Shown: positions 5,647-57,612 of the stretch, piece after piece
Numbering within the stretch: position 1 is the stretch's first letter
Layout of the letters: every line of letters starts with the position of its first letter
Assembly: GCA_041648975.1 (NCBI GenBank)
Contig: JBAZNZ010000005.1
Span: 10,332-74,331 of the forward strand
DNA: 64,000 nucleotides
From: Candidatus Omnitrophota bacterium
Lineage (GTDB): Bacteria > Omnitrophota > Gorgyraeia > 2-01-FULL-45-10
Reading direction: 5' to 3'
The notes under the pieces: model-generated
Database searches by the model: none
What the model saw: only the letters and a program-made list of their open reading frames with translations
Told to the model about the DNA's origin: nothing
Position numbers and translations under genes: made by a program

Positions 5647-5731
5647 AGTTGTAAGTTGTAAGTTGTAAGTTGTAAGTTTTAAGCGGTAAGTAAAAATTTT
5701 TATCTTACGACTTACAACTTATAACTTACTG
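5647..5731 (-). repeat. heptamer-repeat hairpin element (HRH-2), mlaF to mlaD junction
   Basis: (GTAAGTT)x4...GGTAAGT, A/T loop, then CTTACGACTTACAACTTATAACTTAC. Confidence 0.9.
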
Positions 5732-11232: not shown

Positions 11233-11299
11233 AGTTATAAGTTATAAGTTTTTGGTTGTAACTAAATCGCTTACAACTTACGACTTATAACTTACAACT
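11233..11299 (-). repeat. heptamer-repeat hairpin element (HRH-3), mcsB to clpC junction
   Basis: AGTTATAAGTTATAAGTT, loop, then CTTACAACTTACGACTTATAACTTACAAC. Confidence 0.9.
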
Positions 11300-12444: not shown

Positions 12445-12957
12445 TCATTTTTTCTCGCCGCCGTTCTTGCTCTTCGACTCAAGTTCTTTTATCTCATCAC
12501 GGAGCTTCGCAGCCTCTTCAAATTGCTCCGCCTGGATGGCCTTTTCCATCCTCAATTTAAGCTCCTGCAATGTCCTCGTATCCTTTACGGTCTTGCCGAC
12601 CCTTAACGGCACCTTCCCGACATGCCTGTCGGCGCCGTGTATCCTTTTAAGCAAAGGAGCTAACTGCCCCTTAAAAATCTCGTAACAGTTGCCGCAGCCC
12701 AACCTCCCCGTCTTTTTAAAATCCAAAAAAGTAAACCCGCAGGTAGGGCACTTCATGATATCCGTAGATTCAGGTTCTATATTAGCCCCAAGGTCCGCCA
12801 GTCCCGCCAGGAGATCGCTCAGTCCGAAGTGCTCTTCCATCTCGCTTCCCTTTTCCTTAGCGCACCCCTCGCAAAGATGGAGTTTCGTCACCTTTTCGTT
12901 AACGATCTCTGTCAGGTGCACTGTCGCTTCATTCTTACCGCAAACGTCGCATATCAT
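12445..12957 (-). CDS. mcsA: McsA (zinc-finger plus UVR-domain activator of McsB)
   Basis: CxxC zinc-finger pairs (CDVCGKN...CEGC; CPTCGF...CGNC) and a C-terminal UVR motif (EEAAKLRDEIKELE). Confidence 0.8.
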   Translation of the reverse strand: MICDVCGKNEATVHLTEIVNEKVTKLHLCEGCAKEKGSEMEEHFGLSDLLAGLADLGANIEPESTDIMKCPTCGFTFLDFKKTGRLGCGNCYEIFKGQLAPLLKRIHGADRHVGKVPLRVGKTVKDTRTLQELKLRMEKAIQAEQFEEAAKLRDEIKELESKSKNGGEKK

Positions 12958-14417: not shown

Positions 14418-15116
14418 TTAAATAATTTTTCCGTCTCTCATCATGATGCCTTCGTCGGTCCGGCGGGATATTTTCTCGTCGTGGGTCACGATGGCAAGGG
14501 CCATCTTCGACCGCGATTTCAGGTCAAACAGGAGCTCATATATCGACTCACTGGTCTTTGAATCGAGATTGCCGGTCGGTTCGTCGCATAATAGAATTTC
14601 AGGTTCGTTGATAAGGGCTCTCGCAATCGCGACGCGCTGGGATTCACCGCCCGATAATTCGCCGGGCCTGTGGTTCGCCCTACGTTCCAACCCTACCGAT
14701 TTTAAAACTTCGCTCGCCCTCTCTTTGATAGCTGATAGCTGAAAGCTGAATGCCGACAGCTTTATCAGCGCCGGCATCATAACGTTCTCCAACGCAGTGA
14801 ACTCAGGTAAGAGATGGTAGAATTGAAAAACGAATCCCACCCTCTTATTCCTGATTCGGGACCTTTCTCTATCGGAAAGTCTGTAGATATCAATGCCGTC
14901 CATGGTGACTTTCCCTGATGTAGGCCTATCCAGACCTCCAAGTATATGCAGAAGCGTCGACTTCCCCGCGCCGGACGGTCCTATGATAGCTATTGATTTG
15001 CCGTTCTTTACGCTCAGGTCTATCCCGTTCACAGCCCGGACTTCTTTTGAGCCGTTCTTATACGCCTTATGCAGGCCATATCCCATTAATAATATCTTAT
15101 CCATAGTTATCCACAA
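14418..15116 (-). CDS. lolD: lipoprotein-releasing ABC transporter ATP-binding protein LolD
   Basis: GPSGAGKSTLL, LSGGESQRVAIARAL; adjacent to a LolC/E permease gene. Confidence 0.8.
   Translation of the reverse strand: MWITMDKILLMGYGLHKAYKNGSKEVRAVNGIDLSVKNGKSIAIIGPSGAGKSTLLHILGGLDRPTSGKVTMDGIDIYRLSDRERSRIRNKRVGFVFQFYHLLPEFTALENVMMPALIKLSAFSFQLSAIKERASEVLKSVGLERRANHRPGELSGGESQRVAIARALINEPEILLCDEPTGNLDSKTSESIYELLFDLKSRSKMALAIVTHDEKISRRTDEGIMMRDGKII
14727..14769 (-). repeat. AGCTGA-type heptamer-repeat element in-frame inside lolD
   Basis: GATAGCTGATAGCTGAAAGCTGAATGCCGACAGCTTTATCAGC encodes LSAFSFQLSA, an extra segment in the short linker region relative to E. coli LolD (LLIGKKKPAEINSRA). 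Confidence 0.6.
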
Positions 15117-16378: not shown

Positions 16379-16388
16379 ACTCCTTAGC

Positions 16389-16470
16389 CGTAAGCTATAA
16401 GTTGTAAGCTGTAAGCTATTTTTAAAACTTAATTTATTGCTTATAGCTTAAAGCTTATGGCTTAAAGCTA
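16389..16470 (-). repeat. heptamer-repeat hairpin element, TAAGCT variant (HRH-4), lysS to lolE junction
   Basis: CGTAAGCTATAAGTTGTAAGCTGTAAGCT, loop, then GCTTATAGCTTAAAGCTTATGGCTTAAAGCT. Confidence 0.85.
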
Positions 16471-23484: not shown

Positions 23485-23493
23485 GCTAAAAGA

Positions 23494-23516
23494 TATAAGT
23501 CGTAAGTTATAAGTTA
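23494..23516 (+). repeat. half heptamer-repeat element (5' arm only) just upstream of the anti-sigma RBS
   Basis: ATAAGTCGTAAGTTATAAGTTAT followed by ATGGAGG and the ATG. Confidence 0.7.
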
Positions 23517-23528
23517 TATGGAGGAAAG

Positions 23529-23975
23529 ATGATAGATATAAAAAGTCATACGACCCATCCGACAGACGTAGAGCTTGCCGGCTTCCTCGGCAACTCGCTC
23601 GCCGCTGACGATAGAAAACGCGTTGAAACTCATATCTACGGGTGCGAGGAATGCCTTGCCAGGGTCGTTTCAGCTTATGAATCGGTCAATTCGTTCAACA
23701 AGAAAGGTCTGCCTAAAAAAAGAAAGGGTAACATTATGAATAGGATAAACCTCTATTTCGTGCTGGCCGCTATATCGTTCGCACTGTCTTTCGCGGTCCC
23801 CAGGTACTTCCTGCAGTTACTGGCAGCTACTCTGCTTTTGGGGGCAAAGTGGATAGCCGATTCAAAAACGACAAAGATGCTCGTAATGATCCATGAGGCA
23901 TGGAAAAACGGCGGCGGAAGAGAAGCTTCCAGAGTGCTAGAAAAGTTTGAATCGGCGTATAAGGGAAGGTTATAG
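23529..23975 (+). CDS. putative membrane anti-sigma factor (zinc-binding HxxxCxxC type)
   Basis: HIYGCEEC motif, one TM helix, immediately downstream of the ECF sigma gene. Confidence 0.6.
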   Translation: MIDIKSHTTHPTDVELAGFLGNSLAADDRKRVETHIYGCEECLARVVSAYESVNSFNKKGLPKKRKGNIMNRINLYFVLAAISFALSFAVPRYFLQLLAATLLLGAKWIADSKTTKMLVMIHEAWKNGGGREASRVLEKFESAYKGRL

Positions 23976-56349: not shown

Positions 56350-57612
56350 TTATTTCTTCATGATAATAGCCGCATACACGGTAAATAATAGCATATTTGC
56401 GGGTATGTGGAAATTAAAATCAATCAGGCCGTGAAGCGCCAGGCTCAATACGCCTGCGGCGCATCCGACGGAGCGAAGACTATTACGTGCTTCTTTAGTA
56501 AATCCCGTCTTTATGATCACGACAAAGATCCAGAGCATTAGAAAAGGCGCCAGCAGGCCCATCTCCGCGGCCATCTGCAGATAGTCGTTATGCGCGGCAT
56601 TTGCCAGGGCAACGAGGCCCTCGGGCCGGAAACGCGGGAATCCCCAGATGAACGTCCCTATTCCGGTACCTATCGCCGGATTATGAATTATCATGTCAAC
56701 GCTGCCTTTCCATATCTTTAGGCGCGTTCCGTCAAAGAGGTCGGCGCCGTAAGGCGCATAAGCAAGTTTTAGCCTGTCCGATATCGTCTCTCTGCCTAAA
56801 TATACGAATGAGAATATTATCATCAGGACGAGAATAAATATAAGTATGCTCTTAATATTTATTGTCCTTCTCTTCCTTATGACGAGCATCATGACGATCA
56901 ATGATACGCCCATACTAAGCCATGCGCCGCGCGATTGGGCCAATATAAAAGCGGAGGCCATAAATATCAATGCTGTCACCAGAAATACTCTATGGTCCTT
57001 CGCCACGCGGACATCCCCTTTCAACCGAGACATCTGGTTGAATAACTCGGCTATAGCGACCGGCATAGCGAGTTCCAGGTAGCCGGCAAAGTGGTTATGA
57101 TTTACATAAGTTGATGCGAGAAAATCCTGCGGAATCCACCATGAATGGGGCAGCGTTCCGAAATATTGAAAAAGTCCGTATAGCGAAAGACACCCGCCCA
57201 TGGATATGATGAGATATATCAGGCGTTTAACCATTTGTCCGTCAAATTCATTGATGATCACGTAATACACCCCTATGTATCCTAAAAGCCTCAAGAGGGC
57301 GTAAAAACTGTCATGTTTGTATATGGAGAAGACGAATGATATGGCGGCCAGGACCGTTAAGAGCAGGATGGGCAGATCGATGGAATTAGTTGTAAGTCGT
57401 AAGTTGTAAGTTGTAAGTTTGGGTTTTGCAGGGTTCGGGGAGACATTGACAACCTTAAAAAGCCACAGAAATATGATGATAAGCTCGACGAGCAGGATCG
57501 GCGTCATCGCCCATAGCCGGACAGATGCGCCTCTGGCTATCGGCGAAAATATGAGTATCGCCGCCAGCAGTATCCACAAAAGCTTTTTATACACCCTATA
57601 CTTTTTTACCAT
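56350..57612 (-). CDS. O-antigen ligase/polymerase family membrane protein (Wzy_C/WaaL-like)
   Basis: About 10-12 TM helices with a large periplasmic loop carrying the Wzy_C-like region; an in-frame heptamer-repeat insertion sits in the N-terminal loop. Confidence 0.7.
   Translation of the reverse strand: MVKKYRVYKKLLWILLAAILIFSPIARGASVRLWAMTPILLVELIIIFLWLFKVVNVSPNPAKPKLTTYNLRLTTNSIDLPILLLTVLAAISFVFSIYKHDSFYALLRLLGYIGVYYVIINEFDGQMVKRLIYLIISMGGCLSLYGLFQYFGTLPHSWWIPQDFLASTYVNHNHFAGYLELAMPVAIAELFNQMSRLKGDVRVAKDHRVFLVTALIFMASAFILAQSRGAWLSMGVSLIVMMLVIRKRRTINIKSILIFILVLMIIFSFVYLGRETISDRLKLAYAPYGADLFDGTRLKIWKGSVDMIIHNPAIGTGIGTFIWGFPRFRPEGLVALANAAHNDYLQMAAEMGLLAPFLMLWIFVVIIKTGFTKEARNSLRSVGCAAGVLSLALHGLIDFNFHIPANMLLFTVYAAIIMKK
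57388..57419 (-). repeat. half heptamer-repeat element inserted in-frame in the O-antigen-ligase-like CDS
   Basis: On the minus strand AACTTACAACTTACAACTTACGACTTACAACT encodes ...[13 protein letters not shown]... within a loop region. Confidence 0.8.

Follow-up and report, generated by a model that had tools for sequence, protein, structure and literature searches.

The array and its host gene

The 64,000-nucleotide stretch of Candidatus Omnitrophota DNA analyzed here (contig JBAZNZ010000005.1), called the window below, carries on its minus strand a gene for a 420-residue membrane protein of the Wzy_C/O-antigen-ligase family (56350-57612), and within this gene, in frame, lies a tandem array of a seven-nucleotide unit (57388-57419, minus strand). 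Read on the minus strand from 57419 to 57388, its 32 bases are AACTTAC, AACTTAC, AACTTAC, GACTTAC and AACT, giving three perfect units head to tail, where at least about three copies define a tandem repeat of this kind; Tandem Repeats Finder (TRF) reported period 7, 4.6 copies and 92% matches. The array begins at offset 193 of the gene and encodes residues K65 to T75. An earlier annotation of this DNA, made from the sequence alone (the original prediction), had described a heptamer array at this place, on this strand and in frame, and both the sequence and the translation of the open reading frame (ORF) agree with it.

The host protein matched Pfam Wzy_C with 81.8 bits (cutoff 31.7; E 5.7e-23) and is 100% identical to the NCBI entry 'O-antigen ligase family protein [Candidatus Omnitrophota bacterium]'; its NCBIfam matches lay far under their cutoffs. 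An AlphaFold model built from an alignment of 40 orthologues reached a predicted template-modeling score (pTM) of 0.88, and its best match in the PDB was the WaaL ligase 7TPG (E 2.7e-6, TM-score 0.60-0.62). By family and by modeled fold, the protein is thus a predicted multi-helix member of the Wzy_C/WaaL-fold family, and we refer to it as ligase-like in this sense. Its neighbors in the window encode a Bac_transf sugar transferase, a TPR/CBM60 protein and a methyltransferase, and a syntenic locus recovered from another assembly (L001, described below) adds glycosyltransferases, Wzz/GNVR-ParA and Poly_export genes, which together indicate a surface-polysaccharide cluster of the exopolysaccharide or O-antigen type. 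In the model, residues 57-78 form a coil between helices 33-56 and 79-94, in keeping with the proposed position in a loop between transmembrane (TM) helices, and the mean predicted local distance difference test score (pLDDT) for residues 61-70 was 55. Since the first 56 residues of the protein are conserved across orthologues, the array is internal to the protein and does not belong to a leader region. By analogy with the N-in topology of WaaL, and by the positive-inside rule applied to the K/R-rich N-terminus and loop, we infer that the loop bearing the array would face the cytoplasm.

The heptamer is not confined to this gene. With 3 mismatches at most, AACTTAYx3 gave 28 overlapping matches at 7 loci of the 64-kb window and none in 100 shuffles that preserved dinucleotide composition. 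At equivalent thresholds the window held 10 arrays of period 7 and 0-1 of each of the periods 5, 6 and 8-12, and all ten had TAAGTTR/YAACTTA units or units closely related to these; from the shuffles and the enrichment of period 7, the array is real and non-random. Five of the seven loci are intergenic and adjoin or overlap stop codons. Four complete elements are present, each with the structure 5'-(TAAGTTR)n, a short loop and (YAACTTA)n-3', and AACTTAY forms the 3' arm in all four, so the term '3'-arm type' given to the array in the original prediction is apt, as is the proposal that it belongs to an intergenic element family, the same heptamer forming the arms of the intergenic hairpins of the window.

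Why a single arm is found in a coding sequence can be read from the units themselves. The 5'-arm unit TAAGTTG contains TAA, and because 7 mod 3 = 1, three such units place a stop in every frame. In contrast, the 3'-arm unit read in sense (CAA CTT ACA ACT TAC AAC TTA; Q-L-T-T-Y-N-L) is open in all frames, and the array at 57388-57419 is accordingly a stop-free half-element. Both arrays found inside coding sequences of the window, this one and an array in a lolD-like gene (antisense unit TGATAGC), have stops in none of the three sense frames and in all three antisense frames. A full hairpin or a 5' arm could not survive inside a coding sequence, as it would bring stops in every frame, which explains why only the half-element is found there.

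An insertion shared with a diverged orthologue

Loop length was taken as the segment between the near-invariant residues L51 and P81 in the 40 orthologues. The mode was 18 residues and the median 19, compared with 29 in the window protein and in one orthologue, P0003; the excess of the window protein is therefore 11 residues, or 33 nt, which is the length of the array. The alignment with orthologous ligases that had been proposed as a check thus identifies the segment as an insertion (29 versus a mode of 18 residues). P0003, encoded at locus L001, is a syntenic orthologue with 66% amino acid identity to the window protein. Its segment reads ELTTYNLQLTT, and the underlying array, a perfect (AACTTAC)4.7, agrees with that of the window in codon position, phase and length, and in 32 of 33 nt. 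Another orthologue, P0002, is 65% identical to the window protein and lacks the array, and a neighbor-joining tree grouped the three as (P0002,(window,P0003)). Given the shared array, its lack in P0002 and the tree, it is most parsimonious to assume that the array was inserted once, before the window and L001 lineages separated, and was retained from then on. The lineage of the window is not represented among the GTDB representatives, in which the best orthologue of the window protein was 51% identical, and the window locus or gene was matched by none of the metagenome contigs listed as carrying (AACTTAC)3. As judged from these comparisons, the array appears to be an ancient and fixed in-frame insertion relative to P0002 and the rest of the family. 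The original prediction had held that the same peptide in orthologues from genomes lacking the repeat family would mark the segment as ancestral coding sequence. This proved true in part: the L001 orthologue carries the segment, which is therefore ancestral to the window and L001 lineages, and the 21 kb of L001 contain no other AACTTAY array; however, relative to P0002 and the family the segment is still an insertion.

We consider it probable that the array is one arm of the dispersed heptamer family of this lineage, fixed as an in-frame 33-nt loop insertion, and that it is stable and does not act as a high-frequency switch. This explanation starts from what was observed directly, namely the anatomy of the array, its family membership, the size of the insertion, the shared ancestry, the stability and the stop-codon asymmetry. 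The usual form of the family would be the intergenic hairpin, 5'-(TAAGTTR)n-loop-(YAACTTA)n-3', immediately following a stop codon. In the last ancestor shared by the window and L001 organisms, one array would have been fixed as a clean 33-nt (11-codon) insert in the loop between TM2 and TM3, and in a coding sequence the AACTTAC orientation alone would survive, being open in three frames whereas TAAGTTG carries TAA in three. Since stepwise growth by 7 nt would pass through frameshifts, a pre-formed array was probably acquired in one step, by recombination or template switching. The insert would now be ordinary, stable coding sequence that forms a polar, disordered extension of a loop that takes other inserts too in other orthologues, and it presumably has no role at the protein level. 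Of the two possibilities raised in the original prediction, a tolerated insertion of the intergenic element family is the one supported here, as an 11-codon, orientation-restricted and ancient insertion.

Codon conservation, copy number and alternative explanations

The window and L001 genes were compared codon by codon. Gene-wide, identical amino acids share their codon in 52.5% of cases and nucleotide identity is 69%, while within the array the codons match at all 9 of the 9 shared residues (P~7e-4, calculated from the per-residue codon identities in the Wzy_C and neighboring Bac_transf genes: L 0.34, T 0.43, Y 0.69, N 0.71). The test is unbiased, as the pair was found by protein homology. 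Among the 12 loop residues just upstream of the array, 4 are identical between the two proteins.

Several points weigh against the reading of the array as a simple family insertion. Drift would be expected of an insert that is no more than tolerated in a loop of low conservation, and the array has not drifted. Homogenization within the array is not expected, from concerted-evolution theory, to slow the divergence of the unit consensus, so some constraint is implied, and the codon conservation would point to one on DNA, RNA or peptide that this explanation does not supply. In addition, the 21 kb examined of L001 contain no further AACTTAY array and so give no support there to an insertion of that genome's own family. 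Finally, the arrays in lolD, enolase and FolD genes replace a loop of similar length instead of lengthening it, so that simple insertion is not the whole story.

One alternative, unlikely in our judgment, is that the array is a selected cis-acting nucleic-acid element, either a binding site for a putative factor that would also recognize the intergenic heptamer arrays or an mRNA target that pairs with unpaired (UAAGUUR)n transcripts, such as those of the half-element at 23490-23518. The DNA is conserved beyond what the peptide needs, both in the codon test and over the whole array (32/33 nt against 69% gene-wide). The mRNA of the array is predicted to be unstructured (z +1.06) and hence accessible, and both arm types are present in the window as unpaired halves. 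Arrays are also kept in further diverged orthologue pairs: L098/L190 and L113/L194 have identical arrays within their coding sequences in spite of flanks that are only 77-81% identical, but these pairs were selected because an exact 21-mer was matched in each of the two orthologues, and are therefore biased towards conservation. On the other hand, no factor, small RNA or Rfam family was found, there are no partner arrays within 21 kb of L001, and the lolD array of the window has no counterpart in orthologues, so not all arrays in coding sequences are conserved. We also considered the array as part of an mRNA hairpin; a partner 5' arm was sought in the mRNA and none was found, and the local fold was no better than that of shuffles (the same z of +1.06), so this arrangement was rejected. 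A wider form of the cis-element idea, which we regard as improbable, would have (AACTTAC)n arrays actively maintained, overwriting or extending loops of essential proteins and then held constant as factor recognition sites or as partners for pairing in trans. If this were so, Omnitrophota and further uncultivated bacteria would carry a genome-wide cis-regulatory code that extends even into their coding sequences.

According to a second alternative, the array is a phase-variable contingency locus at which slipped-strand mispairing truncates the ligase-like protein and so switches the surface polysaccharide, for example under phage pressure. The tract lies towards the 5' end of a surface-polysaccharide gene, which would suit this, as would the purity of the repeat across species, perfect over 4.7 copies in L001. 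When units were added or removed in silico, changes of ±1 or ±2 units led to stops at residues 70-89 and only ±3 units kept the frame, which is what such a switch would need. The original prediction had emphasized that copy changes of 21 nt are neutral to the frame; this holds for ±3 units, but single 7-nt units shift the frame, so that the array, if mutable at all, would be an on/off switch and not a tuner of loop length. The copy-number comparisons, made on consensus assemblies and protein clusters, gave no sign of such changes. Copy number is equal in the window and the 66%-identical orthologue. The assemblies L001, L200, L201 and L202, which come from four samples and are of one strain type, do not differ from one another over the array or over an intergenic heptamer hairpin. 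In the P0003 protein cluster, the members that reach across the loop are P0003, P0122 and P0123, and all have the identical ELTTYNLQLTTFS segment; no copy-number allele was found in this cluster or in the four assemblies, and no frameshifted or C-terminal-fragment allele among the protein matches. The sole apparent OFF allele, in L202, is a point change upstream of the array. The tract itself is short, three perfect units and one interrupted, compared with 13-24 units in the hmw promoters of Haemophilus influenzae (PMC8262952). Similar arrays also occur in essential genes (lolD, enolase, FolD, KsgA), where switching off would be lethal, which again counts against phase variation. With no length variation in the comparisons made and so short a tract, the phase-variable module that had been suggested for this locus finds no support in the orthologue or in the four assemblies, and we think it very improbable.

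The change in L202 (~position 258, alignment A4 column 159) turns a GAG codon of the Wzy_C gene into a premature TAG stop and lies 65 nt upstream of the array; it may be a natural null allele or a consensus error, and is in either case a point mutation and not slippage.

The weakest alternative, chance periodicity within ancestral coding sequence or an assembly artefact, has the short length of the tract alone to speak for it and is effectively refuted by the shuffles (0 matches in 100), by the enrichment of period 7 alone, by the four-assembly comparison, by the presence of the array in independent assemblies of two species and by the intact reading frame and conserved protein sequence downstream, so that we give it almost no credence.

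Heptamer elements in the window, in known repeat families and in other genomes

RNA folding of the four complete elements of the window gave free energies (dG) of -27 to -39 kcal/mol and z-scores of -4 to -7. Three of the four fill gaps between co-directional housekeeping genes and the fourth lies between convergent genes. The first, (ATAAGTT)5-loop-(CTTAYAA)4 at 2042-2111 (dG -33, z -6.5), fills the gap between a hexapeptide-transferase gene and cysS, and the first unit of its 5' arm provides the TAG stop of the upstream gene. The annotated start of cysS, an ATG at 2041-2043 next to another ATG at 2038-2040, comes directly after the 3' arm of this hairpin with no Shine-Dalgarno sequence between them, unlike the genes downstream of the remaining hairpins, which have GGAGG or AAGGAG. 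The hairpin at 5647-5729 (dG -38.9, z -7.2) is the one between two convergent genes. The third, at 11233-11299 (z -4.9), lies between co-directional mcsB-like and clpC-like genes and adjoins the TAG stop of the upstream gene, and the fourth, at 16386-16469 (z -4.0), separates lysS from a lolC/E-like gene and has the variant units AGCTRTA and TTAWAGC; a TAA within its 5' arm ends the lysS ORF. When the hairpins were compared with intrinsic (Rho-independent) terminators, in which a T-tract follows a G+C-rich stem, their stems were A+T-rich and had no T-tract, and none was among the terminator-like sites of the window scan. An Rfam scan of the window at the gathering threshold found no RNA family over the hairpins; its sole matches were two tRNA genes on the minus strand (48108-48190 and 48407-48477).

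Two further loci of the family are half-elements or lie within a gene. A half-element of the 5'-arm type, TAAGTYR x3 on the plus strand (23490-23518), is intergenic, downstream of a sigma-70-family gene and just upstream of the Shine-Dalgarno sequence and ATG of the gene at 23529-23975. The second array within a coding sequence (14726-14761, minus strand; GCTATCA-type in sense, GCTRTCA) is an in-frame part of the lolD-like ABC ATPase gene 14418-15116, whose product scored 289.7 bits against TIGR02211, slightly under the 307.75-bit cutoff. The array is translated as LSAFSFQLSAI, within a loop whose sequence varies among orthologues but whose length is similar, and it had no counterpart in any of 19 orthologues at 64-75% identity.

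REP/BIME elements are intergenic palindromic elements of enterobacteria, and the four hairpins of the window resemble them as dispersed, imperfect palindromes without a T-tract, placed in intercistronic or convergent 3' regions of housekeeping operons. They may be REP-like elements that act at mRNA ends or in mRNA processing. They differ from REP/BIME in that their arms are built from tandem heptamers. To our knowledge, REPs are not embedded in frame within coding loops.

Closer likenesses were found among dispersed heptanucleotide repeats. Direct repeats of TAACTGA have been described in marine Beggiatoaceae, some Cyanobacteria and Bacteroidetes (MacGregor 2015, PMC4679880). Like the window family, they are dispersed 7-nt tandem repeats of 2-6 or more copies, mostly intergenic and often overlapping the stop codon of the upstream gene, and their forward unit stops all three frames, so that the reverse orientation alone occurs in ORFs, where the seven-residue repeat is LSVISYQ, compared with LTTYNLQ for the window array. 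The sequence of the unit differs between the two families. The intergenic copies in the window are paired inverted arrays that form long hairpins, whereas a single indirect repeat was reported among the BOGUAY TAACTGA copies; and while the TAACTGA copies in ORFs mainly occupy the ends of proteins or belong to hypothetical ORFs (PMC4679880), those in ORFs of the window are in internal loops of conserved proteins and are kept across species. The cyanobacterial STRR and the GGGAATC and GGGGAYT heptamers of Xanthomonas and Nostoc form a further group (Rehm et al. 2015, PMC4692102); the same study notes that heptamers are over-represented among bacterial simple sequence repeats and mentions a polymerase-slippage hypothesis. 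These too are lineage-specific tandem heptamers, over-represented relative to other unit sizes, that favor gaps between co-oriented ORFs, lie near stops and are occasionally arranged as inverted arrays (PMC4692102). Repeats of the GGGAATC type are, however, G-rich, form G-quadruplexes and show a bias to four units (PMC4692102), unlike the window unit, which is AT-rich and hairpin-forming and whose copy in the coding sequence is invariant in length. The phase-variable heptanucleotide (ATCTTTC)n of the H. influenzae hmw promoters shares with the window array its tandem 7-nt units at a gene for a surface structure (PMC8262952). In the window array a single-unit change would switch the reading frame. 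The hmw loci have long tracts with documented length variation (PMC8262952), in contrast to the 4.6 interrupted units of the window array, for which the comparisons made gave no variation.

The window array thus has the defining features of the dispersed heptanucleotide families (STRR, TAACTGA and GGGAATC), and what is distinct here is that the intergenic copies are hairpins, that copies in ORFs are placed in internal loops of conserved proteins and that they are retained across species. As such it offers a clean and dated case of a dispersed heptanucleotide repeat turned into permanent coding sequence and kept while the host protein diverged to 66% identity: an insert of exactly 11 codons, in a single orientation, at a loop that has repeatedly taken up inserts. 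It extends the little-studied heptamer-repeat phenomenon to Omnitrophota, and many uncultivated bacteria have such arrays in frame within core enzymes (enolase, UvrC, KsgA, FolD and LolD). For annotation, the case warns against calling such tracts phase-variable from sequence alone, and the synonymous-site conservation gives a lead on whether heptamer arrays may function at the level of nucleic acid.

Period-7 arrays were also the prevailing type in relatives. Across 1.07 Mb of GTDB genomes, at 78 orthologue loci, there were 38 arrays of period 7, compared with 1 of period 8 and 2 of period 10; the heptamer units differ between genomes, and the arrays are often inverted pairs. In the host protein family, independent heptamer arrays occur in the TM2-TM3 loop of L046 and in a different loop of L020, and other repeat-like inserts are found in the TM2-TM3 loop of P0025, P0028, P0030 and P0031. 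A CGCGGAC x3 tract in the TM2-TM3 loop of L002 was not relied on, being 21 nt with 2 mismatches and compatible with chance.

Outside this family, a scan of metagenomes for (AACTTAC)3 returned at least 119 contigs with GC fractions from 0.27 to 0.62. About 35 arrays among the matches listed are mid-ORF and in frame, and these mid-ORF cases alone were used, as the classification of arrays as ORF-spanning is noisy at gene edges. Pfam searches on ten array hosts identified enolase, UvrC, PolyA_pol/CCA, RrnaAD (KsgA), FolD, GT1, NTP-transferase and another Wzy_C protein; the hosts are on unrelated metagenome contigs, and the array in enolase is at the junction of the N- and C-terminal domains.

Several further observations were made on these loci. 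The inserts of P0025, P0028, P0030 and P0031 (alignment A1, columns 90-135 and 250-270) resemble translated dispersed repeats, with segments such as NEIASGASRPRNDD, CFVVPPAAGLLAMTG and GTVPFLS, and P0028 has GTVPLGRQ in two different loops. In the DUF2229/HGD-D gene of L113 (~1540-1565) and L194, the in-frame (AACTTAC)3.7 is followed after about 25 nt by an in-frame (GTTGTCA)x3, and both arrays are conserved between these orthologues, which are 81% identical in nucleotide sequence. At L001, the Bac_transf gene is followed by an intergenic heptamer hairpin of CYCTAAA and TTTAGRG units (12760-12885), which does not differ among three assemblies; one of its TTTAGRG units is the plant telomere repeat TTTAGGG. 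Long heptamer arrays were also present in other taxa, namely GATGCTG/GATGTTT x16 at the contig end of a Desulfobacterales genome (L045, 6-120), AAAGACC x10 in an Omnitrophota metagenome-assembled genome (L034, 303-374) and AACTTAC x14.6 on a metagenome contig (L180, 9758-9859).

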